64,000 nucleotides of DNA from an uncultured bacterium (GTDB lineage: Bacteria > Actinomycetota > Acidimicrobiia > Spongiisociales > ZC4RG35): NCBI GenBank assembly GCA_963825585.1, contig CAWGTX010000006.1:963905-1027904 (forward strand), written 5' to 3'. Positions 5,917 through 54,133 of this stretch are shown in pieces; the first letter of the stretch is position 1; every line of letters starts with the position of its first letter. The notes beneath the pieces were generated by a model that saw only the letters and a program-made list of their open reading frames with translations, was not told where the DNA came from and did no database searches. A program made the position numbers and the translations under genes.

Positions 5917-5987
5917 TCCCGCTCCTGCCCTCGCCGTCGACTACCAAACAACATTCTGACATGGCGACGACGCGATGCCAGGACTTC

Positions 5988-6067
5988 GAGCAACGAGCAA
6001 CGAGCAACGAGCAACGAGCAACGAGCAACGAGCAACGAGCAACGAGCAACGAGCAACGAGCAACGAG
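5988..6067. repeat. 7-bp microsatellite (GAGCAAC)n, about 11.4 tandem copies, intergenic
   Basis: Perfect tandem caacgag/gagcaac units, read directly. Produces the SLLVARC/SNEQRAT periodic artefact ORFs in both strands. Confidence 0.95.
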
Positions 6068-6111
6068 CATGTATCCACCTTCCGCGCGATGAGGTCGCCC
6101 GGATAGGGAGT

Positions 6112-6336
6112 AACTTTGTCCCCCTCGAGCTTGCGAGAGGGGGAAGGGGCCCCCACGAGGAACGAGTGGGGTAGGGGGGGCCTATCCCTCGCGAGCATGA
6201 TGACGCGTTCCTGTGCCTCGCGTCGCCTGAGGACGCGCTCCCGATCGCGTGCGAGTTCATCTCGCGGGCTTTCGACCCCCCTACCCCGTTCGTTCCTCAC
6301 GGGGACCCCTTCCCCCACTCCGTGGGGGACAAACTT
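6112..6336. repeat. MITE/REP-like GC-rich element: two about 65-bp inverted arms (6112..6180 and 6276..6336) around a 95-bp core. A solo arm copy lies at 37017..37075.
   Basis: Left arm aactttgtccccctcgag...gggggaaggggcccccacgaggaacgagtggggtaggggggg. Right arm is its near reverse complement, cccccctaccccgttcgttcctcacggggaccccttcccccactccgtgggggacaaactt. Internal G/C hairpins (ccccctc/gaggggg, ggggcccc). Confidence 0.8.
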
Positions 6337-8389: not shown

Positions 8390-9283
8390 GTGAGCAAGCA
8401 CCCATGGACGTGGATCTGGCTGGCTGCGCTCGGGTTCGCCATCGGCTTCCCACTCATGAAGGTGATGTTCGAGTCCGGAATGGACGTGTGGCAGATCCTC
8501 GTCCCCCGATATCTGATCGGCACCGCCGTGATCGCCCTCATCGCCCGGTCGCGTTCGTTCGACTGGCGGGCTCCCGGAGCCATCCGCCGGGGTGCGGTAC
8601 TCGGGATCGTCAACGTCGCCGCGCCCACCATTCTCATGAGCCTCGGTACCGACCTGCTCCCCTCATCGGTGGCCGGGGTGCTGACCGCATTCATCCCGAT
8701 GGCCACGGTGGCCGCCGCTCACGTCGCCGTGCCGGGCGAACGCTTCTCGGTGCGGAGAGTCCCCGGTCTCATGCTGGCAACGGCCGGCGTGGTGCTGCTG
8801 GTGGTAGCCGGGCGGGGCGACGACGGCGCTCGGATCTCTCTGCTCGGGGTGATCCTGTTTCTGATCGGCGTGTCCCTGGCAGGCGTCGGTGGCGCCCTCA
8901 ACCGACGCTTTGCGATGGGAACTCCGGCGACCTCTCTCGTGCTGCCGCAGTTCGTGGGCGCCATGGCGGTGGTCACCTTCATCGGGTTGCCACTCGGCGG
9001 TAGCCGGCTGTCCGGTCTCTCCGGCGTCCAGTGGAGCCAGGTGGTGGTGTTCGGACTCGTGTGCACCGCCCTGCCGTTCTTCGCACTCCTCAAGGCCTCC
9101 GAGCTGGCTTCGGCCGCCAGGGCGTCGCTCATCGGCTACATCGTCCCGCTGCTGGCCGCCGTGATGGCGGTCTTCTTCCTGGGTGACCCCGCCTCGAACG
9201 CCCTGATGTTCGGTGGTGGCCTGATAGTGGCCGGCGTCTACGCGGCCGACCGGGCGGAGCGCCGCCTGGTACTCGCAGGCTGA
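8390..9283 (+). CDS. EamA/DMT-family transporter (10 TM)
   Basis: Two EamA-like halves, hydrophobic throughout. GTG start. Confidence 0.8.
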   Translation: MSKHPWTWIWLAALGFAIGFPLMKVMFESGMDVWQILVPRYLIGTAVIALIARSRSFDWRAPGAIRRGAVLGIVNVAAPTILMSLGTDLLPSSVAGVLTAFIPMATVAAAHVAVPGERFSVRRVPGLMLATAGVVLLVVAGRGDDGARISLLGVILFLIGVSLAGVGGALNRRFAMGTPATSLVLPQFVGAMAVVTFIGLPLGGSRLSGLSGVQWSQVVVFGLVCTALPFFALLKASELASAARASLIGYIVPLLAAVMAVFFLGDPASNALMFGGGLIVAGVYAADRAERRLVLAG

Positions 9284-9390: not shown

Positions 9391-10281
9391 GTGCCGTCGG
9401 TGTGGCTGCTCGTGATCGGCACCGCCGTGCTGTGGGGCGCGGGCGGCCTCGTCTCGAAAGCGCTGATCGAGAGCGATCTCGACGCCTTCACCGTCACCGC
9501 TGCCCCATTCGGCGCCGGGGCGATCGTGGCATGGCTCGTCGCCAGAAAGCTCCCGAGCCTGCCCGTCTTCGTATCGGGGTTGCTGCTCGGCACGGTCAGC
9601 ACCGCCGGGCCGGCCCTGTTCTTCAACCTCGCCTACGAGACCCTTCCCGCCGGTGTGGTGACGCTGCTGATCGCCATCGGCCCCATCATCACCGCCGTCG
9701 CCGCCCACTTCTGGTTCCCGGACGAACGCTTCACGCTCGGGAAGGGGGTCGGGCTGGCGATCTCACTGTGCGGGGTTGCGGTCCTCTCGCTCGGCCAGGG
9801 TGGCGAGAGCGGCGGGACCCCGGTCGGGGTGGTGATGGTGATCTGCGGTGCGCTTCTGGCCGGCACCACTGCCGTGTGGGGTCGGTCGGCGGCCATGCGC
9901 CACGGCGCCAAGAACCTGGTGCCCACCCAACTCACCGGCGCCGCCCTCATGCCGGTTGTCATGTCGTTCGTGCTCGATCGCGACCTGGTTCCGACGGGCG
10001 GATTCCGGGCCTGGCAGGTGCTGGGTCTGGTGGCGATCGGATCGTTTGCCAGCTTCCTCGGCTTCCGGCTCATCATGAAGGCCAACGAGGTGGGTACGAC
10101 CGGACAGGTTTCCCTGGTGGGCTATCTGCTGCCGGTGGTTGGTGTCGGCGGCGGCGCGATCTTCTTCGAAGAGCCTGTCACAGCCCCGGTGGTCATCGGA
10201 GGCGCCCTCATCCTGATGGGTGTGCTCATCACCGGTCGCTCCGGCGGCAAACCCGCCCGGGTTCTCCGCTCGGCCGGGTAG
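9391..10281 (+). CDS. EamA/DMT-family transporter (paralogue)
   Basis: Hydrophobic 296-aa protein with EamA-type repeats. GTG start. Confidence 0.8.
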   Translation: MPSVWLLVIGTAVLWGAGGLVSKALIESDLDAFTVTAAPFGAGAIVAWLVARKLPSLPVFVSGLLLGTVSTAGPALFFNLAYETLPAGVVTLLIAIGPIITAVAAHFWFPDERFTLGKGVGLAISLCGVAVLSLGQGGESGGTPVGVVMVICGALLAGTTAVWGRSAAMRHGAKNLVPTQLTGAALMPVVMSFVLDRDLVPTGGFRAWQVLGLVAIGSFASFLGFRLIMKANEVGTTGQVSLVGYLLPVVGVGGGAIFFEEPVTAPVVIGGALILMGVLITGRSGGKPARVLRSAG

Positions 10282-15791: not shown

Positions 15792-16182
15792 GGATCGTAC
15801 CTCCGGCCCTCCCGAAGCGAACGTACGAAACGGATGTGACAGAATCGGAGCAGCGAGGAGCGCGGGGCGAGGAGCGAGGAGCCGGAAGTCTGGACCGGCA
15901 GCCGAGGCGGACCAGCAGATACGCCGCCAGGCGGATCTGCAACCCGGCGCTTGCGCCGGGCGGCGTCTGTTCGGCGGGCGTCGACGAGGTGAACCCGTCA
16001 CCGTGCGGGCCGAAGTCGGCGCATAAGAAGTGAAGAGTTCGACGACAATGAAGACACGAGGGCGGCAGCCCGGGCGGACCAGCGTCTGTTCCGCCCGGCG
16101 TCAACCCACATCGGCAACATGATCCGGCAAGACGACGGCGCGGGGCGGAAGTCCGCCCGCAATAGAAAGGAGGTGATCAGAG

Positions 16183-30900: not shown

Positions 30901-32427
30901 TCAGCCGACTCCACCTTCCGCGGTTCTCCTGCCGATGAAGTCGTGGAGCTCTGCGGCAGTGGCGTCGTCGAGCGGTGGCGGTTCGAAGTCGGCCAGGACC
31001 TGCTTGTAGACCCGGTGGGCGCGCTGGTCGGCCGTGAGACCGCCCGCTAGCTGCCAGTTCTCGAAGTTCTGCCAGTCCGACACGATGGGCGCGTAGAAGG
31101 CGGTTTCGTAGCGCTCGAGGGTGTGTGCCGACCCGAAGAAATGGCCGCCCGGCCCGACGTCGCCGATGGCGTCGACCGCCAGTTCCGCGGTGTCGATCTT
31201 GAGCGGCTGCATGACCTCGGCCATCATCTGGAGGAGTTCCACATCGATGACGAACTTCTCGAAGCTGGCCACCAGCCCGCCTTCCATCCACCCTGCACCA
31301 TGCATGACCAGGTTGGCGTGGCCCATGACCGCTCCCCACAGCGACATCTCGGACTCGTAGGCGGCCTGGGCATCGACTGCGTTGGAGGCGTTGGCATTCG
31401 ACGAGCGGTACGGGATCCCGTACCGCCGCGCCAGCTGGCCACCTGCCAGGGCCGCCCTCGTGTACTCGGGGGTACCGAACGCCGGGGCGCCCGATCTCAT
31501 GTCGACATTGGATGTGAATCCGCCGTAGACCACCGGAGCGCCCGGGTTGACCATCTGGGTGAACGCCAGACCGGCCAGAGCTTCGGCATTCTGCTGGGCC
31601 AGGGCCCCGGCGATGGAGGCGGGCGCCATCGCTCCTGACAGCGTGAACGGTGTGATCACCACAACCTGGTTCATGCGGGCCATCTCGATGAGCCCTTCGA
31701 TCATGGGCCCGTCGAGACGCAGCGGCGACGACGTGTTGATGATGGTGAAGAGGGACGGCTCGGCCGATAGCTGCTCTCTGGTGATTCCGCGCCCGATCCT
31801 CACGATCTCGAGCGCGTCGATGATCCGCCCTCGTCCCAGCGAGTAGGCGTGGAACACCTTGTCGGTGAGCGTGATGAACGAACCGAGCCCCGCCAGATGC
31901 CTGGTGGCGGGTGGGAGGTCGATTGGTTCCACCGGATACCCGCCAAACAGGTGGACGATGTTGAACGCCTGTCCGAGCCGCAGGAAGTCCTGGAAGTGGG
32001 CGAAGGTGCCGGGTCGGCGGCCGCCATCGAGCGACGACGAGTTCGGGGCGCTCGCCACCGAACAGAAATTGACGTTCGTGCCTCCGACGGCGAGATTGTG
32101 AGCAGGGTTGCGGGCGTGCATCGTGAACCCGGCGGGAGCCTTGGAGACGAGGTCGAGGACCAACTCACGATCGAATCGGACCCGCTCGGTTCCCGCCTCG
32201 ACGTCGGCGCCGTTGGCGGCGAGGATCTCCAGCGCCTCCGGATGGAGGAAGTCCATGCCGATCCGCTCCAGAATCTGGAGCGAGGCGTCGTGGATGGCCT
32301 CGATCTGGTCGTCCGCGAGAACGTCCATCGGCCGGAAGGGATTGGTCAGATTCCGCCACGGCAGCTGATGGAGACCGGCGCCCCGGCTGGCCCGTCGACC
32401 GGCCCGGGTGGAGCTTTCACGTGGCAT
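30901..32427 (-). CDS. Trimethylamine methyltransferase (MttB) family, non-pyrrolysine type (quaternary-amine:corrinoid methyltransferase-like)
   Basis: Full-length MttB fold with no in-frame amber. No corrinoid protein or MtxA partner in the window. Confidence 0.9.
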   Translation of the reverse strand: MPRESSTRAGRRASRGAGLHQLPWRNLTNPFRPMDVLADDQIEAIHDASLQILERIGMDFLHPEALEILAANGADVEAGTERVRFDRELVLDLVSKAPAGFTMHARNPAHNLAVGGTNVNFCSVASAPNSSSLDGGRRPGTFAHFQDFLRLGQAFNIVHLFGGYPVEPIDLPPATRHLAGLGSFITLTDKVFHAYSLGRGRIIDALEIVRIGRGITREQLSAEPSLFTIINTSSPLRLDGPMIEGLIEMARMNQVVVITPFTLSGAMAPASIAGALAQQNAEALAGLAFTQMVNPGAPVVYGGFTSNVDMRSGAPAFGTPEYTRAALAGGQLARRYGIPYRSSNANASNAVDAQAAYESEMSLWGAVMGHANLVMHGAGWMEGGLVASFEKFVIDVELLQMMAEVMQPLKIDTAELAVDAIGDVGPGGHFFGSAHTLERYETAFYAPIVSDWQNFENWQLAGGLTADQRAHRVYKQVLADFEPPPLDDATAAELHDFIGRRTAEGGVG

Positions 32428-32528
32428 GACGGCAGGTTACCCCGCCTTCCCGTCATGTGGAACGGTTCCACGAAGTGGACCAGGAGCGGCGTGTGGTCAG
32501 GGCGATGTCGACGCCGCTGGATGAAGGG

Positions 32529-32559
32529 GTCGACAAGTCAACAGGTCAACAGGTCAACC
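32529..32559. repeat. Array of four 8-bp-period GTYRACAR units (locus A of a dispersed family)
   Basis: gtcgacaa gtcaacag gtcaacag gtcaacc, in the divergent intergenic region. Confidence 0.9.
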
Positions 32560-32630
32560 AGGCGGTCCTTGCCCCCCAGGTCGATGTGCAAACACCGGAA
32601 CCGTTCAGCGGCGGATAGCGTCTCATCGCC

Positions 32631-33044
32631 ATGCACACTTCGTCTCGGGCACGCCTGGCAATCGCCGTCTTGGCCATCGGGCTCGCAGCGTGTCAAGGTG
32701 CCTCCAACGGTGACATCGCGATCTGGAACATCGAGTCGGCCGAGTCGATCACGCCCGAAGCGACGTCGTTCACCGCCCTCGTCGAGCGACTGGGGTGCGC
32801 CAACGGCGAGACGGGTCGCGTGCTCGATCCCGTCATCAACGCCGGTGAGGACGAGATCGTCATCACGTTCTCCGTCGAAGCACTCCCCGCCGGCGACTAC
32901 AACTGTCCGGGTAACGACCGTGTTTCCTATCTCATCGAGCTGGAAGAGCCGGTCGGCCAACGCAGAATCGTCGACGGTGCTTGCCGGCACGGCGACGCCG
33001 CGGAAACCTCACACTGCACCACCGAGGTCCGCTGGGAACGGTGA
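32631..33044 (+). CDS. Hypothetical lipoprotein
   Basis: Signal peptide with lipobox LAAC. Confidence 0.5.
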   Translation: MHTSSRARLAIAVLAIGLAACQGASNGDIAIWNIESAESITPEATSFTALVERLGCANGETGRVLDPVINAGEDEIVITFSVEALPAGDYNCPGNDRVSYLIELEEPVGQRRIVDGACRHGDAAETSHCTTEVRWER

Positions 33045-33047
33045 CGA

Positions 33048-37016: not shown

Positions 37017-37075
37017 CTCTTGTCCCCCACGAAGTGGGGGAAGGGGCCCCCACGAAGTGGGGTAGGGGGGTGGAG
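37017..37075. repeat. Solo copy of the GC-rich hairpin element seen at 6112..6336
   Basis: tgtcccccacgaagtgggggaaggggcccccacgaagtggggtaggggggtgg; two cccccac-gaa-gtggggg hairpins. Confidence 0.8.
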
Positions 37076-37091: not shown

Positions 37092-38558
37092 TCATACGCG
37101 AGAAACCTCCATCACGGCCTTCGCCGGCCGCTCCATCTGGGAATGGACCTTCCAGATCTCGTCGAGGACCGCCTTCGGTCCGTCCAGCGTGTTCGCCGAC
37201 CGTCCCGCCTCCATGTCGACGTGCACCAGCACCTGCTCGTTGGTGCAGAGCAGATCGCCGGTGTCGCCGTGGTACATGGCGTGGAAGATGTGGAGCCGCT
37301 TGTGGTCGTGGCCGAGCAGCTGGGTGGTGAACCGCAGCGGCTCACCGGTCGAGCACTCCTTGGTGTAGACGAGATGGCTCTCGACGGTGTAGAACGAGTG
37401 CTTGGCGGCCCGGTAGTCCTCGTCGATACCGATGTACCGGAAGAAGGCGTCCGACGCCCATCCGAACGCCAGCAGGTACGCCGACTCGGTCATGTGGTCG
37501 TTGTAGTCCACCCAGTCGGGCGCCACCCGGCACTGGTAGAGGGGCAGCGGCGTGTCGATCGCCATCCCCGGCGTCCAGCGGGTGGGTGCGGCCCGGTCGA
37601 CGGTGCGGCCTTCGCGCCGGGCGATGATCGCCCCCGCCCCGAGCTTGGACTCACGAAGCGAGTACATCACCGAGATCAGGGAGTCGTCACGCAGCCGCTC
37701 CAGCTCGGCGATCGAGCGTCCCGCCGCCTGTGCCTGGGTGCCCTCGACCATTCGGTCGATGAGGGTGTCGGTGAGCGGGGGCGCCACCAGCTTGGTCCAC
37801 GGCCACTCGAGGGCCGGTCCGAACTGTTCGAGCATGTGCCGCATCCCCGCCTCGCCGCCGGCCAGGTGGTAGATCAGGTTGGTCCCCATCGCCGCCCAGC
37901 GGATGCCGGGGCCGTACACGATCGAGTCGTCGAGCTCACCGGTGGTGGCGACGTTCTCGGAGATCATGTGGAGGATCTCCCGCCACAAGGCCTCCTGCAG
38001 CCGGTCGGCCAGGAAGCCGTCCACCTCGGTGCGGACGTGGAGGGCGTACATGTCGAGGTCGTCGTACACGATGAGCGCCCGCTCGACGACGTCCGGCGAT
38101 GTCTTCGCACCGCCGAGCACTTCCACCAGCGGCAGTAGATAGACGGGGTTGAACGGGTGTCCCACCACCATCCGCTCCGGATGGCGCATCCCGTCCTGCA
38201 GCTCGCTGGGCAACAGCCCTGAGGTGGACGATCCGATGATCACCTCGGGCCCGGCGGTGGCGTCGATGGCCCGCAGCACCCGTTGTTTCAACCCGACGTT
38301 CTCGGGCGCCGACTCCTGCACGAAGTCGGCCTGCTCACCCACCTCCTCGGGCGAAGCGACGAACGTGACCCGGCCGGGATCGGCACCCGGATACAGCCCG
38401 ATCTTGCGAACCGACGGCCAGGCACGCTCGATCGAGGCGTGGAGCCGGTCCTCCGCTCCGGGGGCCGGGTCGCTGGCGACCACGTCCCAGCCTCGCGAGA
38501 GGGCGCGGACCGCCCAGCCGGCGCCGATCACGCCGGTCCCCACCACGCCGAATCGCAT
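37092..38558 (-). CDS. lcdH: L-carnitine dehydrogenase-like (3-hydroxyacyl-CoA-dehydrogenase NAD domain fused to C-terminal hotdog thioesterase-like domain)
   Basis: MRFGVVGTGVIGAGWA Rossmann start; 3HCDH body; C-terminal about 150-aa 4HBT-like region. Confidence 0.7.
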   Translation of the reverse strand: MRFGVVGTGVIGAGWAVRALSRGWDVVASDPAPGAEDRLHASIERAWPSVRKIGLYPGADPGRVTFVASPEEVGEQADFVQESAPENVGLKQRVLRAIDATAGPEVIIGSSTSGLLPSELQDGMRHPERMVVGHPFNPVYLLPLVEVLGGAKTSPDVVERALIVYDDLDMYALHVRTEVDGFLADRLQEALWREILHMISENVATTGELDDSIVYGPGIRWAAMGTNLIYHLAGGEAGMRHMLEQFGPALEWPWTKLVAPPLTDTLIDRMVEGTQAQAAGRSIAELERLRDDSLISVMYSLRESKLGAGAIIARREGRTVDRAAPTRWTPGMAIDTPLPLYQCRVAPDWVDYNDHMTESAYLLAFGWASDAFFRYIGIDEDYRAAKHSFYTVESHLVYTKECSTGEPLRFTTQLLGHDHKRLHIFHAMYHGDTGDLLCTNEQVLVHVDMEAGRSANTLDGPKAVLDEIWKVHSQMERPAKAVMEVSRV

Positions 38559-39496
38559 CAGAAGTTGACCTGGTCGATGCCCTTGAGACCGAGGACCTCA
38601 CGGGTCTCGTCGGCGGTCATCGGCTCACGCGAGAGCTCGTCGAGGATGCGGACGATCTTCTCGACCTGGTCGGCGTTCGACTCGGCCAGCTTGCCCTTGC
38701 GCAGGTAGATCGAGTCCTCCAGACCCACCCGAACGTTGCCGCCCAGGGTGGCGCCGGCCGTGATCAGGTCGAACTGGGCGCGACCGCCACCGAGGATGCC
38801 CCATTCGGCATCGTTGCCGAACAGCCGGGTGGCGGCCTCCTTCATGTGGAACACGTTCTCGACATCGGCGCCGATCCCACCGAGGGTGCCGATCACGAAC
38901 TGCATGAAGATGGGTGTCGGCACCAGCCCCTGATCGGCGAAGAACGCCAGCGTGTAGAGGTGGCCGATGTCGTAGGCCTCGAACTCGAAACGGCAGCCCG
39001 TCTCGGCGGCCAACACGGTGAGCATGTATTCGATGTCGGAGAACCGGCTGACGAACGGCTCGTCCTTGGTGGAGGCGAGGTAGGGCTCCTCCCAGTCGTA
39101 CTTCCAGCGACCCTCGTACCTGGGGATCATCTGGAACAGGCCGTAGTTCATGGTGCCCAGGTTGCAGGTGGCGAGCTCGGGCTTGAGATCCCGCACCACC
39201 TGGAGCCGTTCCTCCACGCTCTGGCCGGTGGCGCCACCGGTGGTGATCGAGATCACCGCGTCGGAGCGTTCCTTGATGCCGGCGCAGTACTCCCTGAAGA
39301 CTCCCGGGTCCGACACGGGCCGCCCATCCCGGGGGTCACGGGCGTGGAGGTGGATGACACCGGCACCCGCTTCGGCAGCGGCCACGGACTGTTCGACGTG
39401 ATCCTCGATGGTCATCGGGATGTCGTTGTTCATGGTGGGCGTGTGCGCCGATCCCGTCACCGCACACGTCACGATCACCTTGCCGGCCGGCCGCAT
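38558..39496 (-). CDS. BKACE-family (3-keto-5-aminohexanoate cleavage enzyme, DUF849) protein; candidate 3-dehydrocarnitine cleavage enzyme
   Basis: Start MRPAGKVIVTCAVTGS...HLHARD... TIM-barrel BKACE signatures. Stop overlaps the lcdH start (TGATG). Confidence 0.85.
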   Translation of the reverse strand: MRPAGKVIVTCAVTGSAHTPTMNNDIPMTIEDHVEQSVAAAEAGAGVIHLHARDPRDGRPVSDPGVFREYCAGIKERSDAVISITTGGATGQSVEERLQVVRDLKPELATCNLGTMNYGLFQMIPRYEGRWKYDWEEPYLASTKDEPFVSRFSDIEYMLTVLAAETGCRFEFEAYDIGHLYTLAFFADQGLVPTPIFMQFVIGTLGGIGADVENVFHMKEAATRLFGNDAEWGILGGGRAQFDLITAGATLGGNVRVGLEDSIYLRKGKLAESNADQVEKIVRILDELSREPMTADETREVLGLKGIDQVNF

Positions 39497-39532
39497 GATG
39501 TCTCCCTCGCCCGAGCTACATGTCCCGACAGT

Positions 39533-39551
39533 CGTTCCGCGATTCGGAACG
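39533..39551. promoter_or_regulatory. Palindromic candidate operator (7-N5-7) in the divergent IclR / BKACE-lcdH promoter region
   Basis: cgttccg-cgatt-cggaacg. Confidence 0.5.
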
Positions 39552-39596
39552 TTCTGTATAGTGGACCACGATATCGCACGGGGAGACGGCGCGTCA

Positions 39597-40343
39597 ATGG
39601 CCGACAACGTTCAATCGGTGCTCCGAGCCTTCGACATCCTCCGGGTCCTGGCCGCTCACTCCGAGGTCCAGCTCCGCCACCTGGCCGCTGAGACCGGGCT
39701 ACCCAAATCGACCCTGTCCCGACTGCTGGCCACGATGGAGTCGATCGGGATGGTGGCTCGTGGTGTTTCGGAAGGCAGCTACACCTCGGGACCGGGGCTC
39801 CCCGCCATCACCGGTTCGGCCCAGCGCCCATCGCAGTTGCTCGGGGTGGCCCACGCCTACCTGGCAGAGCTGACGGACCGCTACGGCGAGGATTCAGCCC
39901 TCGCCGTCGCCGACGGCGAGGCGGTCATCTACACCGTGCAGGTGCGGAGCGACAACCCAATCCAGGTCCCCAACTGGACCCGCCAACGGTTCCGGCCGCA
40001 CACCGTCGCCGCCGGGTTCGTGCTGATGGCGTGGTGGCCGGCGGAGCGCCTCGACGCCTACCTCGAGACACCACTCGACGCCCCCACTCCGAAGACGATG
40101 ACCGCTCCAAGCGCCATCCGGCGCCGCTCGGCCGACATCCGCCGTCGCGGTTACGGCTGGGCCTTCGACGAGTGGCTCGAGGGCATCAGCGCCGTCGCAG
40201 CCCCCGTTCTCGACGGCTCCGACAACCTGGTGGCGATGGTCAGCACCTTCGGTCCCAGCTACCGCTTCCCGGGCGACCGCGACCCCGACCAGATCGGCCG
40301 AGACCTGGCCGAGACCGGACGGTTGCTGTCACGACACCTCTGA
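39597..40343 (+). CDS. IclR-family transcriptional regulator
   Basis: N-terminal wHTH (VLRAFDILRVLAAHSEVQLRHLAAETGLPKSTLSRLL) plus IclR effector domain. GGGAGA SD. Confidence 0.85.
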   Translation: MADNVQSVLRAFDILRVLAAHSEVQLRHLAAETGLPKSTLSRLLATMESIGMVARGVSEGSYTSGPGLPAITGSAQRPSQLLGVAHAYLAELTDRYGEDSALAVADGEAVIYTVQVRSDNPIQVPNWTRQRFRPHTVAAGFVLMAWWPAERLDAYLETPLDAPTPKTMTAPSAIRRRSADIRRRGYGWAFDEWLEGISAVAAPVLDGSDNLVAMVSTFGPSYRFPGDRDPDQIGRDLAETGRLLSRHL

Positions 40344-40411
40344 AGACCTGAGAGCCGTAGACATCGAGGTCGCGATAGGGGATCTTACGGTGGGATCCTC
40401 TCGGCGGAGCG

Positions 40412-40497
40412 ATCAACAGGTCAATCGGTCAACCGGTCAACGGGACCGGAATCGCGGGTTTGACCTGTTGACTTGTCGACCTGTTGACTTGTTGACC
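40412..40497. repeat. Inverted pair of 8-bp-period GTYRACAR arrays (locus B; 4 units, 15-bp spacer, about 5 units in opposite orientation)
   Basis: atcaacaggtcaatcggtcaaccggtcaacgg ... tttgacctgttgacttgtcgacctgttgacttgttgacc. Confidence 0.9.
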
Positions 40498-40694
40498 ATC
40501 CCTGCACAGGTCCGCTCAGCCGTCCCAGTCTGCTCAACCTCATTTTGCTGATTATCTCGTAGACATTTTGTGGAGCAGCCGAGCGCCGAGACGGTATGAG
40601 TGCGCGGTCCCGGATGAACCTCGGGATCGGAATTTGCCGGGCGCCTGATCTGGAATTGCCGGCCGTCGATGGGGTGGCCGACGGCGAACCGAAC

Positions 40695-42065
40695 TCAGGG
40701 GAGGTAGACCTCTTCGACAGCCACGATCTCTCCACCCTGCACCGTGACCCAGTAGGGCAACGCTCCGGCGCCGTACCACTCGAAATCGATGACACTGCTG
40801 TCGCCCTCGATCAGCAGCAACCACTGGGCGAGCGTCACCGGCTCGAGGCCGATTCCGGCTTGGAGGACGTTGCCCTGGATGCGGATGTCGGGGTCGTCCG
40901 CCAACGGAATCGGGGTCGTGTCCTCGGTGGTGTTGCGGATGAAGAAGTCGTTGGGCGGGGGTGACTCCTCCCCCGCCGCTTCGGCTGCGGCGGCGGCGTC
41001 CTCCCCGGTGAGGAAATCGGCTTCGTCGAACTCGATGGAGCCGGCACCGGCCGACCGGACCCATCCGAAGAACCGACCGTCGATGATCTGCTCGACGCCT
41101 GGACCCGTGTAGGCACGCGTCGAGCGGTCGAAGCTGAATCGCACGCCGACCGGGCCGACGAACGCCGTCCCGGAGGTGAGATCGAGCAGGAACGACTGGT
41201 CGCCGACCATGCCCGCCACCCACTCGCCGTCGGTGTCGAGGCGGGTGATGGGCCCTTCCACCGGGAGCGGGATGGCCGCCGCCGGTCCCTGACTGCCTAC
41301 CGGCAACGTGTAGACGTCGCTGTCGTCGGCGTCGGTGGAGAAGACCAGGGTCGAACCGTCGGGGGTGAGGACCACCGATAGGGGAGCCCCGTCGGTGAGC
41401 AGGTCGAGGGTGGAGGTCGATCCGTCGGATCCGACCTCGGTGACGAGCGACTCACCGCCGGCACCGCGCACCACCACCATTCTGCCCGACCCGTAGGACG
41501 CTCCGGTCACCTCGCCGGAACCCTGGTAGAGCAGCGTCGCCGAGCCGGTGGCGAGATCGACGGCCTGCACCCGGCCCCCGTCGAAGGTGATGGCCACAGG
41601 GAAGGCGCCGGCGACGGCCACGTCGGCGAGTTCCCCCAGGCCCGAGGCCGCCACCCCGTCGCCGAGCACCACGGTTCCGGCTGCCCCGTGCACCAGCCCG
41701 GCGGGGGTCACAACCGCCAGGGGCGGTTCGTCGAATGGCCCGTCGGCGTAGGTCGTCAATGGGCCGGCCACCCACACGCCGTCGGTGCGCTGCCACGTGC
41801 GGAACCCCGTCCCCACCGAGGCGGTGACCGCCGGGGCGTCGACGAGCGATTCGAGGAAGTCACCGGTCGGGTCGACGAGCGTGGTGGTGGTCGTCTCCGG
41901 CTCGCTGGAAGCAGTCGTCGAAGCGACTGACGTCGTGGCCGTCGTGTCGGCCGGGATCGTCTCGACGACGGGCGGGATGGCATCACCGGTGGGAGTCACG
42001 GGGGTGCACGCAACGAGCACGACCGAGATGACGATCGCAATCGTCTTTGGAGCGCGCGGTCTCAT
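40695..42065 (-). CDS. Secreted lipoprotein, Thr-rich linker plus probable beta-propeller-like domain (hypothetical)
   Basis: Start MRPRAPKTIAIVISVVLVACTP (lipobox). Start codon uncertain; the ORF is open to 42149. Confidence 0.55.
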   Translation of the reverse strand: MRPRAPKTIAIVISVVLVACTPVTPTGDAIPPVVETIPADTTATTSVASTTASSEPETTTTTLVDPTGDFLESLVDAPAVTASVGTGFRTWQRTDGVWVAGPLTTYADGPFDEPPLAVVTPAGLVHGAAGTVVLGDGVAASGLGELADVAVAGAFPVAITFDGGRVQAVDLATGSATLLYQGSGEVTGASYGSGRMVVVRGAGGESLVTEVGSDGSTSTLDLLTDGAPLSVVLTPDGSTLVFSTDADDSDVYTLPVGSQGPAAAIPLPVEGPITRLDTDGEWVAGMVGDQSFLLDLTSGTAFVGPVGVRFSFDRSTRAYTGPGVEQIIDGRFFGWVRSAGAGSIEFDEADFLTGEDAAAAAEAAGEESPPPNDFFIRNTTEDTTPIPLADDPDIRIQGNVLQAGIGLEPVTLAQWLLLIEGDSSVIDFEWYGAGALPYWVTVQGGEIVAVEEVYLP

Positions 42066-42120
42066 ATGCTTCCAACGTAGCGCAACCCGGTGCCGGTTCC
42101 GGGGCCGCGGCCGTACACTC

Positions 42121-42810
42121 ATGTCCATGGAGCGGCTCCGTATGGTCACCTATCTGGGCTCCAACACCCTCCCCATCGCCGGCGAGCTCGCCGCCACGCT
42201 CGGGATGGACCTGATCTCGACCGATGTGCTCGAACCCATCGAACGGGGCGCAGGCGACCTCTACTGGATGTGCGGTCTGCTCACGGTCGAGTTGCTCGAC
42301 TCCGGACGTCTCGACGCCGAGATCGTGGCCGCACCCGTGTTCCGCGGACAGAGCGGCCCGGTGTACCACTCCGTGGTCATCGCCACCTCGCCCGCCGCCG
42401 ACGTCACCGACCTCCCCGGGCGACGCCTCGTGATCAACGAGGTGGGGTCGTGGTCGGGCAACCATGCCCTTCGGGTCCATCTGGCGGACTCTCCGATCTC
42501 GTTCGGCTCGGTCCTCGAATCGGGCGCACACACCCGTTCGATCGACATGCTCCTGGCCGGTGAGGCCGAAGTCGCCGCCATCGATCACACCATCTGGGAG
42601 CATCGCCTGGCGACGGACCCGGCTGTGCACTCGCTGGTCGTGGTCGACCGCACCCGGGACTGGCCCGCTCCCCCGTTCAGCATGAGCCGACGACTCGCTG
42701 ACACCGATGCGCTGCGCCGCGCCCTCACCGCCGCGGCACCCGCCGGCCTGGACCGCATCGTGGAGGCGACCTCGACCGACTACGACCCCATTCGGGTTGC
42801 CATGCGCTGA
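42121..42810 (+). CDS. PhnD/SsuA-like periplasmic-binding-protein-fold domain protein without signal peptide
   Basis: LRMVTYLGSNTLPIAGELAATLGMDLIST... resembles phosphonate/ABC substrate-binding fold. No N-terminal signal. Confidence 0.5.
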   Translation: MSMERLRMVTYLGSNTLPIAGELAATLGMDLISTDVLEPIERGAGDLYWMCGLLTVELLDSGRLDAEIVAAPVFRGQSGPVYHSVVIATSPAADVTDLPGRRLVINEVGSWSGNHALRVHLADSPISFGSVLESGAHTRSIDMLLAGEAEVAAIDHTIWEHRLATDPAVHSLVVVDRTRDWPAPPFSMSRRLADTDALRRALTAAAPAGLDRIVEATSTDYDPIRVAMR

Positions 42811-42818
42811 CGACTCCA

Positions 42819-42854
42819 GGTGACCTGTTGACTTGTTGACCTGTCGACCTGTCC
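42819..42854. repeat. Array of four 8-bp-period GTYRACAR units (locus C, minus orientation), abutting the DMGDH stop codon
   Basis: ggtgacctgttgacttgttgacctgtcgacctgtcc. Confidence 0.9.
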
Positions 42855-45323
42855 TTACGCCTTCATCCGCCCCATCTTGGGATCGAACAGGGGGTCGGGC
42901 GCCACCGTCGCACCGATCCGCCGACCGAAGTACTCGATCTCGAGACGGGTGCCCTCGGTGGCGAGCCGGGCGGGCAGGTAGCCGTAGACGATGTACCCAC
43001 CGACCGAGTAGCCGTAGTTGCCGCTGGTGACGTACCCGACACAGTCCTCGCCCTCGAGGATGGGCTCGTACCCGAAAGCAGCCCCACCCTCGTCGAGCAC
43101 GAGACAGGAAAGCGTGCGCTCGGGTGGCGTGGCCGCCAACCGTTCGGAGGCCTCCCTGCCCACGAAGGCGGGCTTGTCGAGCCGGACCGTCCATCCGAGG
43201 CCGGCCTCGTAGGCGGTGTACTCGGTGTGGACGTCGCTCCCCCATCCCCGGTATCCCTTTTCGAGTCGGAGCGAGTCGAACGCCCCCATCCCGGCGGGGA
43301 TGATGCCGTGTCCGGAGCCGGCCGCCCACAGGGCGTCCCACACCGTGAGGGCGGCGTCGACCGGCATGTGCAATTCCCAGCCGAGCTCGCCGGCATAGGA
43401 GACACGCAGCGCCAGCACGCGGGCCATGCCGACGTCGATCCAGCGGGCGGCGAAATAGGGGAACGCCTCGTTGCTGACGTCGGCGGAGGTGACCTGGGAG
43501 AGCACCTCCCGGGCGTTCGGGCCCCACAGGCCGACCGCCGACCAGGCGTCGGAGATGTCGGTGATGGCGACGTCGGTGAAGCCGCCCTCATCCGCGACCA
43601 CTTCCATCCACCGAAGGTCCTGTGGTCTGGTGCCCTCGCCCACGAAGAACCAGAAGGTGTCGTCGGCGAGTCGGGCCACCGCCAGGTCGCGCTTGACCCC
43701 GCCTCTGGGGGTGAGCCAGGTGGTGTAGACGAGCGTCCCCGCCTTCCGGTCGACGTTGTTCGAACACAGGTGCTGGGCGTAGGCGGCAGCGCTCGCACCC
43801 TTGGCCTCGATGATCGACAGCCCGTGCAGGTCGAACAACGCCACGTCGTCACGGGTGGCGAGATGCTCCGCCCCCTGGATGGGAGACCAGAACTCGGCCT
43901 CCCAGCCGGTGCGCTCCGGGATGCGATCGGCGCAGCGGCCGACGAGGGTGCTGTTGGACTCGAACCAGTTGGGGAGTTCGATCCCGGCGAAGGCGGTGAA
44001 CACCGCCCCGTTGTCGAGGTGACGCTGGTGGAACGGTGACAACCGCACGTTGCGGGGCGAGGTGATCGGCTGACGCGGGTGGATGATCTCGTAGACCTCG
44101 GCGTAGTTCTTGTCGCACACCGCCGCCATGTACGCCGGAGTGGCCTGGAACCCGTGGAAGCGGTGAAGGCTCACCTGGCGGGGATCCCACTCCGAGTCGC
44201 CGTCCACCATCATCTCGGCGGTCATCTTCCCGACGCCGGCCCCGTGTGTGAGCCAGGCCGCCGTCGACACCCACAGCCCCTTGGTTCGGGCCTCGCCGAT
44301 GATGGGCATGCCGTCGACAGAGAAGGCGAACATGCCGTTGAACTTGGTGGGGAACGTGGCGGGGTCGAGTCCCCGGAAGAACGGCAGCACCCGCTGGGCG
44401 GTGTCCCAGGCTTGACCGAGGAAGTCGTCAAGGGTGAAGGGGTTCATGGCGGTGGTGCCCAACGTGTGCGAGCTCACCCTGATCGGGCGATGGCGGTAGC
44501 TCCCGATCCCGTAGGCGTTCCAATGCTGTCGGTAGTACATGAAGGTGTCGAGCTCCCGCATGGTCGGGAACGTCACCTCGTGGTCCTGGTCGGTCGGGTC
44601 GAAGTGGGCGAGCTCGGGAAGAGGCGGGGAGATCAGGTACTGGTGGTCGTAGGCGTGGAGCGGGATCGGAACGCCAACCTTGTCGCCGAGCACCGGACCC
44701 CAGATGTTCGTGGAGATCACCACCTGCTCGGTCTCGATGCGCCGGTGGTCGGCATTGGCGGTGAGAACGGCGGTGACGTGGCCATCCGCCACCTCGACGT
44801 CGGTGACCTCGGTGTCGGCCAGCCAGGTGACCGTCGGCCCGCACGCCGCCTGGAGGGCGGCGTTGAGGTGGGCGGCAGCCACGAGCTGTCCCCGCTCCAT
44901 GAACAACGAACCCACCAGGGCATCGGGGTTGAGGTGCGGCATGACCTCGAGGGTCTCGTCGACGGTGAGTATCCGGGACGATGCGTGATAACTCTTCGCC
45001 TCGCCGTTCAACCGACGGAGGTCTGTGAGCCGGCGTTCGGAGATGGCCAGCTCGAGCCCACCGAAGGAATTCACGGTTCGCCGACCCGGGTCGAACTGCG
45101 GCAGCGACTGGTACAGGTCCGCCCCGTAGTGACCCATCTGGGTGAGCAGCTTCGAATGCCCCAACGCCACCACACCTCCGGGGGCATGCGAGGTCGACCC
45201 GTGGTTGTGGGCGATCGGGCCCTTGTCCACCACGACGATCCCGTCCCATCCAAGTTTCACCAGGTGGTAGGCGATCGAGGATCCGACGATCCCCGACCCC
45301 ACGATGACGACCCGAGCCTGCAT
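42855..45323 (-). CDS. Dimethylglycine/sarcosine dehydrogenase family (FAD oxidoreductase + GcvT-like folate-binding aminomethyltransferase domains)
   Basis: Start MQARVVIVGSGIVGSSIAYHL (FAD GxGxxG). C-terminal GcvT-fold (SYAGELGWELH). Confidence 0.9.
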   Translation of the reverse strand: MQARVVIVGSGIVGSSIAYHLVKLGWDGIVVVDKGPIAHNHGSTSHAPGGVVALGHSKLLTQMGHYGADLYQSLPQFDPGRRTVNSFGGLELAISERRLTDLRRLNGEAKSYHASSRILTVDETLEVMPHLNPDALVGSLFMERGQLVAAAHLNAALQAACGPTVTWLADTEVTDVEVADGHVTAVLTANADHRRIETEQVVISTNIWGPVLGDKVGVPIPLHAYDHQYLISPPLPELAHFDPTDQDHEVTFPTMRELDTFMYYRQHWNAYGIGSYRHRPIRVSSHTLGTTAMNPFTLDDFLGQAWDTAQRVLPFFRGLDPATFPTKFNGMFAFSVDGMPIIGEARTKGLWVSTAAWLTHGAGVGKMTAEMMVDGDSEWDPRQVSLHRFHGFQATPAYMAAVCDKNYAEVYEIIHPRQPITSPRNVRLSPFHQRHLDNGAVFTAFAGIELPNWFESNSTLVGRCADRIPERTGWEAEFWSPIQGAEHLATRDDVALFDLHGLSIIEAKGASAAAYAQHLCSNNVDRKAGTLVYTTWLTPRGGVKRDLAVARLADDTFWFFVGEGTRPQDLRWMEVVADEGGFTDVAITDISDAWSAVGLWGPNAREVLSQVTSADVSNEAFPYFAARWIDVGMARVLALRVSYAGELGWELHMPVDAALTVWDALWAAGSGHGIIPAGMGAFDSLRLEKGYRGWGSDVHTEYTAYEAGLGWTVRLDKPAFVGREASERLAATPPERTLSCLVLDEGGAAFGYEPILEGEDCVGYVTSGNYGYSVGGYIVYGYLPARLATEGTRLEIEYFGRRIGATVAPDPLFDPKMGRMKA

Positions 45324-45481
45324 GAAGACCTCATTTCCAATGCTCTGGACAGTTCTGTACATGCTAAAACGTGAACGACGCGAATCCACATGCCGATCCC
45401 GCCATATGTCGAGTTGGCGACGTTTCTCAAGCCCGACGAATCGATACCGATACCGAACACAGAACGGAGGTCACACGGTCC

Positions 45482-46162
45482 ATGACGGTGAAACTGCTCA
45501 GCCCCGGCCAATCGGTGAAGGGGAGGCCGTTCACATCACCCACGCTGTACGAACGGGATCTTCAGATCCTGGGCTACATGCTCGAGGATGTGCGGGGTCT
45601 GATGGGCGAACTGTACGAAGGCGCCATCTCGATCCGGCCGTACGAACCCCTCTACTGGCGCGTTCACGGACTGGGACGCCGCACCGTATTGTGCGATCCG
45701 ATGCGACTGGGGGAACGTCGGGACATCTGCGTGGTCGGGTTCTTCGGTGAGCGGCTCTTCGGACCAGATGCCACCGCCCTCGAGAAGGCCGACGCCGCCG
45801 TGGTGCTCGAGTTCCAGCACTATCCCGGCATTCTGATCTACAGCTCGATGGAGCTGTCGGACGGCAACTGGGGCAATCTGGTGCTGCACACCGCCCCGGA
45901 GGACCGAGAAGCGTGGAGGGGCGGAGACACCCATGCCAGAGCCGTGGCAGAGCTGGTCCCAATCCACTTCCGGACCGTTCGAATCCACAACGGAACATTG
46001 TCCGGCGGTCTAGCGGGCGGGAAGGCGATCCGGGTCGAGCGCACCAAGTACTGGGACTACCGGAGCCCCCGGGTGTGGCAGGCCGTGCGGGAGCTGTCAG
46101 CTCAACCGGCGGCGGGTTCGGCGACCGGCGGCGGTTCCGACAATGTCGCCACATCGAGGTGA
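45482..46162 (+). CDS. Hypothetical protein (226 aa)
   Basis: GGAGGT SD before ATG 45482. No recognisable motifs. 3' end overlaps the convergent ABC ATPase by 60 nt. Confidence 0.45.
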   Translation: MTVKLLSPGQSVKGRPFTSPTLYERDLQILGYMLEDVRGLMGELYEGAISIRPYEPLYWRVHGLGRRTVLCDPMRLGERRDICVVGFFGERLFGPDATALEKADAAVVLEFQHYPGILIYSSMELSDGNWGNLVLHTAPEDREAWRGGDTHARAVAELVPIHFRTVRIHNGTLSGGLAGGKAIRVERTKYWDYRSPRVWQAVRELSAQPAAGSATGGGSDNVATSR

Positions 46163-52690: not shown

Positions 52691-53845
52691 ATGGCCACAA
52701 CGATCGCCCGCATCACCGCAACGCCCGTGAACGTTCCCATGGTCGCCCCCTACCGGTTTGCGTTCGGGTGGATGACGAACTTCACGACCACGATCATCGA
52801 GGTGGAGGATGCCGACGGCGCCGTCGGCATCGGCGAGTCTCCGCACGGAGATCTCTCAGGGTCGGTGGAGAGACTCGCCGAACACCTCCTCGGCCGACCG
52901 GTCGACGACGCCAACGGAAACGAGAGGGTCAGCCTGCCCGCGCATGGGTTCAGCGTGTGGCAGGACGGGGCCGCCGATCGTCGCGCCTTCGGAGGGATCG
53001 AGATCGCGCTGTTCGATCTTCGCGCACGGCGCCAGAATCGCCCGCTGGTGGACCTCCTCGGAGGGCGGGTCCGCGACCAGGTGGCCTTCACCGAGTACTT
53101 CGCCCTTCGGGAGGGCGCCGAGGAGACGCCTGCTCAGCTCATCGACTACTGCGTTCGAATGGCGAACGAGCACGGATCGCCCTGGTTCGAGGGCAAACTC
53201 GGCGTCCTCGACGTCGAGACGGAGATGAGCATGGTCGCCGGCCTGGTCTCGGCGCTCGGTCCTGGCGTGGTGACCCGCCTCGACGCCAACGGGGCCTACA
53301 CCGTACCCACCGCCCGTCAGGTGATCCCCCGTCTGGCCGACCAGGGGATCGGTTGGCTCGAGGACCCGTGCCGCAGCCTCGACGAGATGGCCGCTCTCCG
53401 GGCCGACGGCGTGCCGATCAGCTTCTCCACCCACGAGGCCGACTTCACCGGTGCCGCCCGCCGAGGCGTCCCCGACGGGTTCTGCCTCGACATCGCAGAG
53501 CTCGGCGGCATCCGCCGAACCCAGGACTTCCTGCGGGCCTGTGCGCTCATCGGCACCGACTTCTGGTGTTACTCGGGCGACGCCGGGATCATGACCGCCG
53601 CCTATCTCCACCTCACGGCGTCCGAGCCGTCGATGATCCGACCGCACCAGTCGCTGTTTCGATTCACCGGGGATGTGGCTATCGAGCAGGGCCACTACTC
53701 GCCAACGGCGGGACTGCTCGAACTCCCCGACGGACCCGGCCTCGGCGTGACGATCGATCGCTCGGCACTGGCACGGATGCACCACCGGTACCTTTCCGAG
53801 GGGTCGATGGGGTCGGGCTACGGCGAGGGCTACCGACGCTGGTGA
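52691..53845 (+). CDS. Enolase-superfamily (mandelate racemase/muconate lactonising enzyme family) protein
   Basis: Start MATTIARITATPVNVPMV; MR/MLE N- and C-domain pattern. Divergent from the TetR gene. Upstream alternative ATG at 52610. Confidence 0.8.
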   Translation: MATTIARITATPVNVPMVAPYRFAFGWMTNFTTTIIEVEDADGAVGIGESPHGDLSGSVERLAEHLLGRPVDDANGNERVSLPAHGFSVWQDGAADRRAFGGIEIALFDLRARRQNRPLVDLLGGRVRDQVAFTEYFALREGAEETPAQLIDYCVRMANEHGSPWFEGKLGVLDVETEMSMVAGLVSALGPGVVTRLDANGAYTVPTARQVIPRLADQGIGWLEDPCRSLDEMAALRADGVPISFSTHEADFTGAARRGVPDGFCLDIAELGGIRRTQDFLRACALIGTDFWCYSGDAGIMTAAYLHLTASEPSMIRPHQSLFRFTGDVAIEQGHYSPTAGLLELPDGPGLGVTIDRSALARMHHRYLSEGSMGSGYGEGYRRW

Positions 53846-53950
53846 CTTCACAGGTCAACGAGGTCAAGCGACGAGTCGACGAGCGACGAGCGACGAGCGA
53901 CGAGCGACGAGCGACGAGCGACGAAGCAATCCTCCGCCCTCCTCCGCCCT
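53841..53950. repeat. Composite repeat: degenerate GTCAAC-type units (locus D), then 7-bp microsatellite (CGACGAG) about 8 copies (53869..53925), then 10-bp direct duplicate cctccgccct x2
   Basis: ggtgacttcacaggtcaacgaggtcaagcg acgagt cgacgag x6 cgacgaa gc aat cctccgccct cctccgccct. Confidence 0.9.
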
Positions 53951-54133
53951 CCTATGGTGATGCCCAGGGGGGACGACCCCCCTTCAACCCCCCGCCGGTG
54001 CTGGTCTGCGGCCTCCGCCTTGCGGGCCGGTGGTGGCTGAGGTATCGGGGGCAGCGGTTGCCACGTTCCGGATTCCGGGCCTCCGGCCTCTGGCCGCCTG
54101 CTTCGAGCATACTTCTGATGCCCTCCTCCGCCT

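Follow-up and report, generated by a model that had tools for sequence, protein, structure and literature searches.

An inverted double array of octanucleotide repeats between converging genes of an uncultured Acidimicrobiia-like bacterium

Short tandem repeats with a palindromic core that recur beside several genes of one catabolic region raise a simple question: are they the binding sites of a regulator shared by those genes, or copies of a repeat family that lies between genes for other reasons? The locus that poses this question here, referred to as locus B, occupies positions 40412–40497 of a 64,000-nucleotide stretch of DNA from an uncultured bacterium (contig CAWGTX010000006.1 of assembly GCA_963825585.1, positions 963,905 to 1,027,904). 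We call this whole stretch the window; its proteins have their closest named homologues in Acidimicrobiia metagenome bins. At locus B, two arrays of an 8-bp unit face each other on opposite strands, and related arrays, named A, C and D, lie at three further places.

On balance, we lean towards the second answer. The locus would then be one copy of a lineage-specific, dispersed, non-coding family of octanucleotide tandem repeats (unit YYGTYGAC), driven by slippage and found in positions like those of repetitive extragenic palindromic (REP) sequences, rather than an operator of the catabolic island. The arrays are intergenic and mostly lie directly behind stop codons, they change in whole 8-bp units, and they appear and vanish with small insertions and segment replacements.

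The octamer arrays and their gene neighbourhood

All counts for the window refer to its 64 kb and were obtained by reading the sequence, by Tandem Repeats Finder (TRF) and by pattern searches compared with shuffled sequence. Arrays A, B and C share the unit YYGTYGAC, which reads GTCRACRR on the opposite strand. The left arm of locus B (40412–40443, plus strand) holds four units in the GTCRAC-NN sense, aTCAACAG GTCAATCG GTCAACCG GTCAACGG, and is reported by TRF as 3.6 copies of period 8 at 40413–40441. The right arm (40457–40497, minus strand) consists of five units of the opposite sense, ggTTTGAC CTGTTGAC TTGTCGAC CTGTTGAC TTGTTGAC c, with 4.8 TRF copies of period 8 at 40460–40497. Between the two lies the spacer gaccggaatcgcg (40444–40456), which measures 13–15 bp depending on how the degenerate first unit of the right arm is counted, and which forms the loop region of the hairpin in RNA fold predictions. 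An earlier interpretation made from the letters alone, the sequence-only reading, had described this layout as four units, a spacer and about five opposite-strand units, and our own reading of the sequence bears it out.

Array A (32529–32560, plus strand) is composed of four units, GTCGACAA GTCAACAG GTCAACAG GTCAACCA, and array C (42817–42854, minus strand) of about 4.5, caGGTGAC CTGTTGAC TTGTTGAC CTGTCGAC CTGTCC; both were recognised by sequence reading, pattern search and TRF at period 8. With at most one mismatch allowed, the three-unit pattern GTYRACNNGTYRACNNGTYRAC is matched 8 times, always at these three loci, where shuffled sequence gives an expectation of 0.02; for the two-unit pattern the figures are 10 and 0.11. 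Array D (53854–53882, plus strand) shows, on reading, GTCAACGA at 53854, an off-phase GTCAAG and GTCGACGA at 53875, and it matches neither the two-unit nor the three-unit pattern in the window search. The sequence-only reading had listed four loci of 8-bp arrays with a GTYRAC core: A, B and C stand, while D is only a degenerate relative, located at 53854–53882 and not at 53841–53870. Across 33 units from the window and its relatives, G3, T4, G6, A7 and C8 of the consensus YYGTYGAC are nearly invariant. This core is intact in 30 of the 33, a count that is partly circular because the core was used to recognise the units, and variation falls on positions 1, 2 and 5, mostly as C/T exchanges.

Pfam scans and sequence reads agree with the gene identities proposed earlier and with the placement of three loci between converging genes and one in a divergent gap. 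Locus B lies between the converging IclR gene (39408–40343, plus strand) and a gene for a 456-aa lipoprotein (40695–42065, minus strand). Array C occupies 38 of the 44 bp that separate two stop codons, those of a PhnD-like binding protein (to 42810, plus strand) and a dimethylglycine-dehydrogenase-like gene (42855–45389, minus strand), which converge on it. Array D is likewise found between converging genes, of the enolase superfamily (to 53845, plus strand) and of a CPBP/Rce1-like protein (from 54134, minus strand). The divergent gap is that of array A, which lies 101 bp upstream of the start of MttB (30901–32427, minus strand) and 70 bp upstream of a small open reading frame (ORF; 32631–33044, plus strand). 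This ORF encodes 137 aa with a lipoprotein signal peptide (…LAIGLAAC…) and has no Pfam match. In the wider region, the scans place the IclR gene divergent from a cluster of BKACE, 3-hydroxyacyl-CoA dehydrogenase, acyl-CoA dehydrogenase, CoA-ligase and enoyl-CoA hydratase genes, and identify an Opp-type transporter, a TetR regulator and sarcosine-oxidase-like genes.

Gain, loss and length change among relatives

The most informative evidence comes from the comparison with relatives, whose fetched loci carry L numbers. For array C, the comparison covers five further lineages, which have the same local gene order and a binding protein 76–84% identical to that of the window. GTYGAC octamers are present in the spacer that separates the binding-protein gene from the dehydrogenase gene in all six lineages, the window included, and in the same orientation throughout. 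Their number ranges from eight units in L124 through 3+4 in L123, about 4.5 in the window, 2–3 in L598/L599 and 2.5 in L120–122 down to 1.5 in L597, and the length of the spacer is constant within a lineage (44 bp in three samples each). In L123 the array replaces the end of the gene, and the TGA within a TTGAC unit serves as the stop codon. The first sub-array of this locus (6171–6192) overlaps the 3′ end of the PhnD-like gene, which lacks the C-terminal codons and the stop codon that are usual there.

At locus B, blastn searches and MAFFT alignments against syntenic relatives reveal a lineage-specific insertion of 176 bp (40365–40540) that carries the double array and is flanked by 3-bp direct repeats (CAT/CAT). 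The insertion has no counterpart in L120–122, L123 and L597, all of which keep the same IclR gene, and it interrupts a 23-bp repeat located 3′ of the IclR stop codon, within the first copy. Its non-array parts, flanks of 47 bp and 43 bp, have no second copy in the window, the relatives or any fetched locus. Array A, for its part, is contained in a 620-bp segment (32428–33047) that stands where L399–L402, whose MttB is 78% identical, have a 4HBT_2 thioesterase gene. In these relatives hydratase, thioesterase and MttB form one operon, and the gap of 36 bp between thioesterase and MttB holds no array. Neither GTYGAC arrays nor any tandem repeats of 5–11 bp were found in L398–L402 (about 50 kb of distinct sequence, some of it overlapping), more distant relatives that have MttB or the whole carnitine cluster.

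Because units change in number and whole arrays come and go among relatives, we read the arrays as fast-evolving repeats of a repeat-prone lineage rather than as regulatory sites with a fixed tie to certain genes. Conservation in relatives had been named as a check on the sequence-only reading; A and B prove to be absent there and C variable in unit number. The proposal of that reading that the arrays are binding sites through which one protein co-regulates the catabolic island is therefore not supported. No promoter is expected between gene 3′ ends, the position of three of the four loci; locus B came with an insertion missing from relatives that retain the IclR gene; array A belongs to a replaced segment, and the MttB of relatives does without it; array C, the only positionally conserved array, varies from 1.5 to 8 units among six lineages; and in many other taxa such arrays are found next to unrelated positions. 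Under the reading that we favour, the arrays are not an operator system for the catabolic island.

Several further features surround these loci. Directly behind the IclR stop codon, every lineage has 2 to 3.5 copies of a 23-bp tandem repeat, TAGACATTTTGnGGnTTATCnCG (window 40345–40364 and 40541–40590; L123 1593–1672; L120 about 5222–5262; L597 about 1275–1335), which may act on the variable genes downstream as an operator or promoter element. In the interval between the IclR and lipoprotein genes, relatives carry variable cargo, an ECF sigma factor, an AAA_14/DUF4143 protein and an HNH protein; the window has no such cargo. The 456-aa predicted lipoprotein (40695–42065, minus strand), divergent from the PhnD-like gene, has no Pfam domain, and L120, L123 and L597 keep a counterpart of 447–454 aa in the same position. 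At array A, the DNA of 32428–33047 is unrelated to the thioesterase region and carries, besides the array, the 137-aa lipoprotein ORF on the strand opposite to MttB.

TRF finds seven arrays of period 7 or 8 in the window, all intergenic, which indicates a genome prone to such repeats in general. Array D runs, through its GTCGACGA, directly into a contiguous heptamer array, (GCGACGA)x8 (53867–53924, plus strand), whose unit is GTCGACGA minus one T. Another heptamer array, (CGAGCAA)x12 at 5987–6069, lies between a flavin reductase gene and an aminotransferase gene, outside the catabolic island; the two units differ by one base and make up a second related dispersed family in the window. Other intergenic tandem repeats are (GAGGAGC)x5 at 15848–15882, (TCCTCCGCCC)x2.4 at 53930–53953 and a 23-bp unit in two copies (CCCCCACGAAGTGGGGGAAGGGG) at 37024–37069, between the acyl-CoA dehydrogenase and 3-hydroxyacyl-CoA dehydrogenase genes. 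Downstream of array D, a G6-ACGA-C6 hairpin is found at 53968–53984. Relative L120 has intergenic repeats of 22 bp x3.7 (8431–8512) and 15 bp x2.7 (9795–9834), and repeat-rich spacers seem to be a trait of this clade.

Folding and competing explanations

What could such arrays do where they lie? The double array of locus B folds, as RNA, with −48.7 kcal/mol (z −5.05) on the plus strand and −45.8 kcal/mol (z −4.5) on the minus strand. The core itself is near-palindromic: GTCGAC is a perfect palindrome, and one copy of GUUGAC can pair with another by using G-U pairs. This makes every direct array self-complementary too, as a series of 6-bp helices with 2x2 internal loops between them, and hairpin potential rises with copy number. 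Direct arrays of 7–8 units fold better than shuffled sequence, with −26.3 kcal/mol (z −4.5) and −30.0 kcal/mol (z −3.7) in L124 and −20.6 kcal/mol (z −3.1) in L123.

Under the explanation that we favour, the arrays would expand and contract by replication slippage and persist where they are harmless. In the TTGAC sense, three units bring a TGA into all three frames (CTG TTG ACC TGT TGA ...), while the opposite sense stays open; this helps to explain why arrays stop at gene ends, and stop codons in every frame would exclude TTGAC-sense arrays from genes. Short direct arrays would be close to neutral. The double array at 40412–40497 would form a long interrupted hairpin, most likely a 3′ stem-loop of REP type, which might mark the transcript ends of the converging IclR and lipoprotein genes, stabilise their transcripts or act as a bidirectional terminator that works without a U-tract. 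This candidate role as 3′ hairpin or terminator is suggested by the predicted fold and by the position of the array between two gene ends.

Several observations weigh against this account. The 4-unit direct arrays of the window fold no better than shuffled sequence (z −1.0 to +1.2), which restricts a credible hairpin role to locus B and to longer arrays. None of the arrays is followed by a U-tract, and a simple terminator scan detects nothing at the arrays. Slippage alone explains neither why one unit is common to three or four loci within 21 kb nor why 30 of 33 units keep their core and only three pyrimidine positions vary. Moreover, the array C site has persisted across lineages in which synonymous sites are expected to be saturated, which could reflect selection. 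The intact core, the long-lived array C site and the unit common to several loci together keep other explanations alive.

The first of these is a sequence-specific DNA-binding protein for which the arrays would be cooperative sites, with one dimer per GTYGAC box and 8 bp from centre to centre, in the style of the ribbon-helix-helix proteins MetJ, on tandem met boxes, or omega/ParG, on repeats of 7–8 bp; the arrays might then act as operators, roadblocks, insulators or nucleoid-organising sites. A strict 8-bp period and a near-palindromic hexamer would suit such a protein, as would a core that stays intact, with variation in the 2-bp spacer and at the central Y, an array C held in position in six lineages, an array A in a divergent promoter region, and the confinement of all four loci to 21 kb of one catabolic region. 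The same reading was proposed by the authors of the Geobacter genome paper for paired octamer sites (PMC2700814). We nevertheless regard it as unlikely, because three of the four loci lie between 3′ ends, because the copy number at the conserved site falls in some lineages to 1.5–2.5 units, too few for cooperative arrays, and because relatives that have these genes lack loci A and B. The scan of window proteins turned up no ribbon-helix-helix or other unassigned DNA-binding protein; the only regulators in it are IclR and TetR, which bind palindromic operators. The clustering is weak as well: the chance that all four loci fall into the island, which makes up 45% of the window, is about 0.04 by our own estimate. 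The met-box operators of MetJ, tandem 8-bp AGACGTCT boxes in 2–5 copies, overlap the promoters of one regulon and need a ribbon-helix-helix repressor. The window arrays resemble them in the 8-bp period of a palindromic box, but the 3′-end position of three of the four loci and the lack of a ribbon-helix-helix gene among the scanned window proteins speak against an operator of this type. A dedicated polymerising protein, MetJ/omega-like or nucleoid-associated, could also coat the GTYGAC boxes and form a bidirectional roadblock or insulator in short convergent gaps. We think this quite unlikely; if true, it would explain both why six diverged lineages have kept array C at one spot, with its orientation unchanged and its core intact, and why look-alike octamer arrays have evolved in unrelated phyla.

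A footprint of a mobile or enzyme-propagated element, either a MITE-like insertion (miniature inverted-repeat transposable element) or a REP-like sequence spread by a transposase, with slippage only secondary, would account for the discrete 176-bp insertion at locus B with its 3-bp CAT duplication, for one unit at dispersed sites and for inverted double arrays that recur in other taxa. It also has a parallel in Geobacter, where a fixed distance separates insertion sequences from sites of paired octamers (PMC2700814). We hold it to be decidedly improbable. The insertion flanks of 47 bp and 43 bp have no second copy in the window, the relatives or the fetched loci, the best candidate for a terminal inverted repeat is AGGTYG with 5/6 matches, which is not convincing, and the arrays are central in the insertion and not terminal. 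No transposase or Y1-transposase (RAYT) domain was seen among the roughly 40 window proteins scanned, and identity of 3 bp at the flanks arises by chance in a few percent of indels. As a MITE in the strict sense the insertion was rejected: the CAT/CAT flank is present, but there is neither a clear terminal inverted repeat nor a second copy of the non-array parts, and no MITE copies of the insertion were found in the window and the fetched loci. Very unlikely, in our estimation, is a factor that acts on the arrays at the RNA level, as proposed for the TAACTGA heptamer repeats of Beggiatoaceae (PMC4679880). All arrays do lie in positions that are likely transcribed, 3′ trailers or the MttB leader, and the only common variation of the core, a T/C exchange at position 3 of the hexamer, preserves pairing on one strand, as G-U or G-C. 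However, array orientation relative to the flanking genes is inconsistent among the four loci, position relative to start codons is not conserved, copy number is highly variable, and no Rfam family matches.

Other identities were examined and set aside. With a hairpin at locus B but no T-run behind it, the array is not an intrinsic (Rho-independent) terminator, and no Rfam match at gathering threshold was obtained for the window and nine array-bearing loci. TTGAC could be taken for a −35 box, but a promoter scan finds nothing at the arrays. The suggestion that GTYRAC might be a methylation or restriction target fails on the site counts for the window, where GTCGAC occurs 103 times against 99 expected, with no sign of avoidance, and GTCAAC/GTTGAC 22/21 times against 24/20, most sites lying outside the arrays. 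CRISPR arrays have repeats of about 24–48 bp with unique spacers, and plasmid iterons are repeats of about 20 bp adjoining a rep gene; the units here are 8 bp long and contiguous without spacers, and no cas or rep gene is found among the window proteins scanned. Megablast gave no plasmid match for 38000–46000.

Similar arrays in other taxa and known repeat systems

Scans of genome and metagenome contig collections yielded matches that are dominated by Bacteroidales and from which no genome-wide count can be derived. Among the matches listed, arrays of GTCGAC or GTCAAC with an 8-bp period occur in Actinomycetes, Acidimicrobiia, Chloroflexota, Burkholderia, Streptomyces, Nocardia and others; some contigs have several arrays each, and some have inverted double arrays like locus B. 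Two unrelated high-GC metagenome contigs carry such double arrays at L221 8739–8841 and L128 4026–4164, with units GAGTCGAC / TCGTCGAC and centres of 50–80 bp; the one in L221 folds with −73.7 kcal/mol (z −8.2) and has further single arrays on the same contig. Crude GC3-based gene calls around 73 arrays in high-GC contigs among the matches listed put 7 within genes, 41 nearest to a stop codon (16 of the 41 within 18 bp) and 24 nearest to a start. The flanking genes, for this set of matches, are convergent in 14 cases, tandem in 21 and divergent in 4.

A much larger family, (R)AGTTGAC / YTGTTGAC, is found in Bacteroidales and Chitinophagaceae among the matches listed. Contigs of Bacteroidales, Prevotella and Niastella (e.g. 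L023, L067, L072, L029, L062, L079, L011, L085) carry (A/G)AGTTGAC or YTGTTGAC in three to more than ten copies, and at least 191 arrays of this type occur in 145 loci (within L001–L119 and L125–L244), about 90% of them outside long ORFs. Some lie right upstream of an ATG, after an A-run, and some are inverted doubles with a conserved centre, repeated within one contig (L079). We found no description of this Bacteroidales family in the searchable literature. A universal 'GTTGAC octamer' can be ruled out, since control hexamers are about as frequent in viral contigs: with a three-unit pattern, GTYGAC gives 74 stretches there, against 45, 34, 74 and >120 for four hexamers of equal composition that served as controls, so the motif is not globally special. 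For the control GGTYAC at 8-bp phase, the matches listed (L403–L482) include numerous phage contigs some 45 kb long, all from metagenome 3300045988 and with one match each, which probably reflects a conserved site in one phage family.

How does the window family compare with repeats already described? Hepta- and octanucleotide repeat families have been noted for decades in cyanobacteria, Beggiatoaceae, Geobacter, Burkholderia and actinobacteria. Mazel et al. reportedly described cyanobacterial STRR heptamer repeats in 1990, among them STRR3, CAACAGT, which is a cyclic form of GTCAACA. Text searches of the literature for the array strings and for STRR returned nothing. In the summary that PMC4679880 gives of Mrazek et al. 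(2007), LSSR5-11 are non-coding repeats with units of 5–11 bp, abundant in some genomes including Actinobacteria, and are read there as the outcome of a tendency of repeats to expand and not of a specific function. The window repeats are like them in their head-to-tail units of 7–8 bp, non-coding position and length variation in whole units. The octamer is present head to tail in at least three copies (TRF 3.6–4.8 at A, at both arms of B and at C), one unit recurs at three firm loci and a degenerate one, and copies change by whole units from 1.5 to 8 in relatives. Unlike LSSR5-11, which are defined for each array separately, the octamer recurs at 3–4 loci of the window and at an orthologous site in six lineages.

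Dispersed heptamer families of Cyanobacteria, Beggiatoaceae and Bacteroidetes (PMC4679880; bioRxiv 10.1101/2022.06.06.494920) are also close in kind; the TAACTGA repeats of these groups (PMC4679880) are one example. With STRR and TAACTGA heptamers, the window arrays share a short unit in two to about ten copies, dispersed intergenic placement, strain indels of whole units, stop codons in all frames in one orientation and the lack of a functional theme among neighbouring genes. They differ in their 8-bp unit, in its near-palindromic, self-complementary core and in the high-GC, Acidimicrobiia-like host, and they mostly follow stop codons, whereas the heptamers lie just upstream of start codons. 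In Geobacter metallireducens, multicopy sites consist of tandem octanucleotides paired on opposite strands, with TWGTTGAY as one consensus (PMC2700814). This consensus matches TTGTTGAC of the window, and the pairing with a variable spacer, as well as the multicopy nature, recalls locus B. In this comparison, made by description only, the Geobacter octamers have 2–5 fairly fixed units, were found by BLAST as conserved multicopy sequences and are in some cases associated with insertion sequences.

With REP sequences and bacterial interspersed mosaic elements (BIMEs), the arrays share their extragenic position at gene 3′ ends and in convergent gaps, their stem-loop potential, a frequent arrangement as inverted pairs and variability among strains. 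B, C and D lie between converging stop codons, and the 73 arrays listed from other taxa show a similar tendency. Locus B folds into a stem-loop, while the window's 4-unit direct arrays do not do so significantly; unlike a REP, the stem at locus B is built of iterated octamers and not of one imperfect palindrome. REP-RAYT systems combine a conserved GTAG/CTAC head with an associated RAYT (Y1 transposase) gene. The octamer unit has no such head, and no transposase domain is found among the roughly 40 window proteins scanned. The suggestion of a novel REP or terminator family thus holds in part: the arrays are REP- or terminator-like, being intergenic, mostly behind stops and self-complementary, with a strong double-array hairpin, but repeats of this kind have been described before and are not novel.

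New here are an example of an octamer family from an uncultured Acidimicrobiia-like lineage, its dated dynamics, with one site long kept at 1.5–8 units and two sites recently gained, and a palindromic core that makes even direct arrays self-complementary. Should a hairpin or roadblock role be true, it would bear on how transcription ends between tightly converging genes of high-GC bacteria. As it stands, the result is a useful annotation and a warning against reading such arrays as operators, not a discovery. The window family fits the kind of short tandem repeat already described, and differs from its known members in its host, its 8-bp unit with a palindromic core and its preference for gene 3′ ends.

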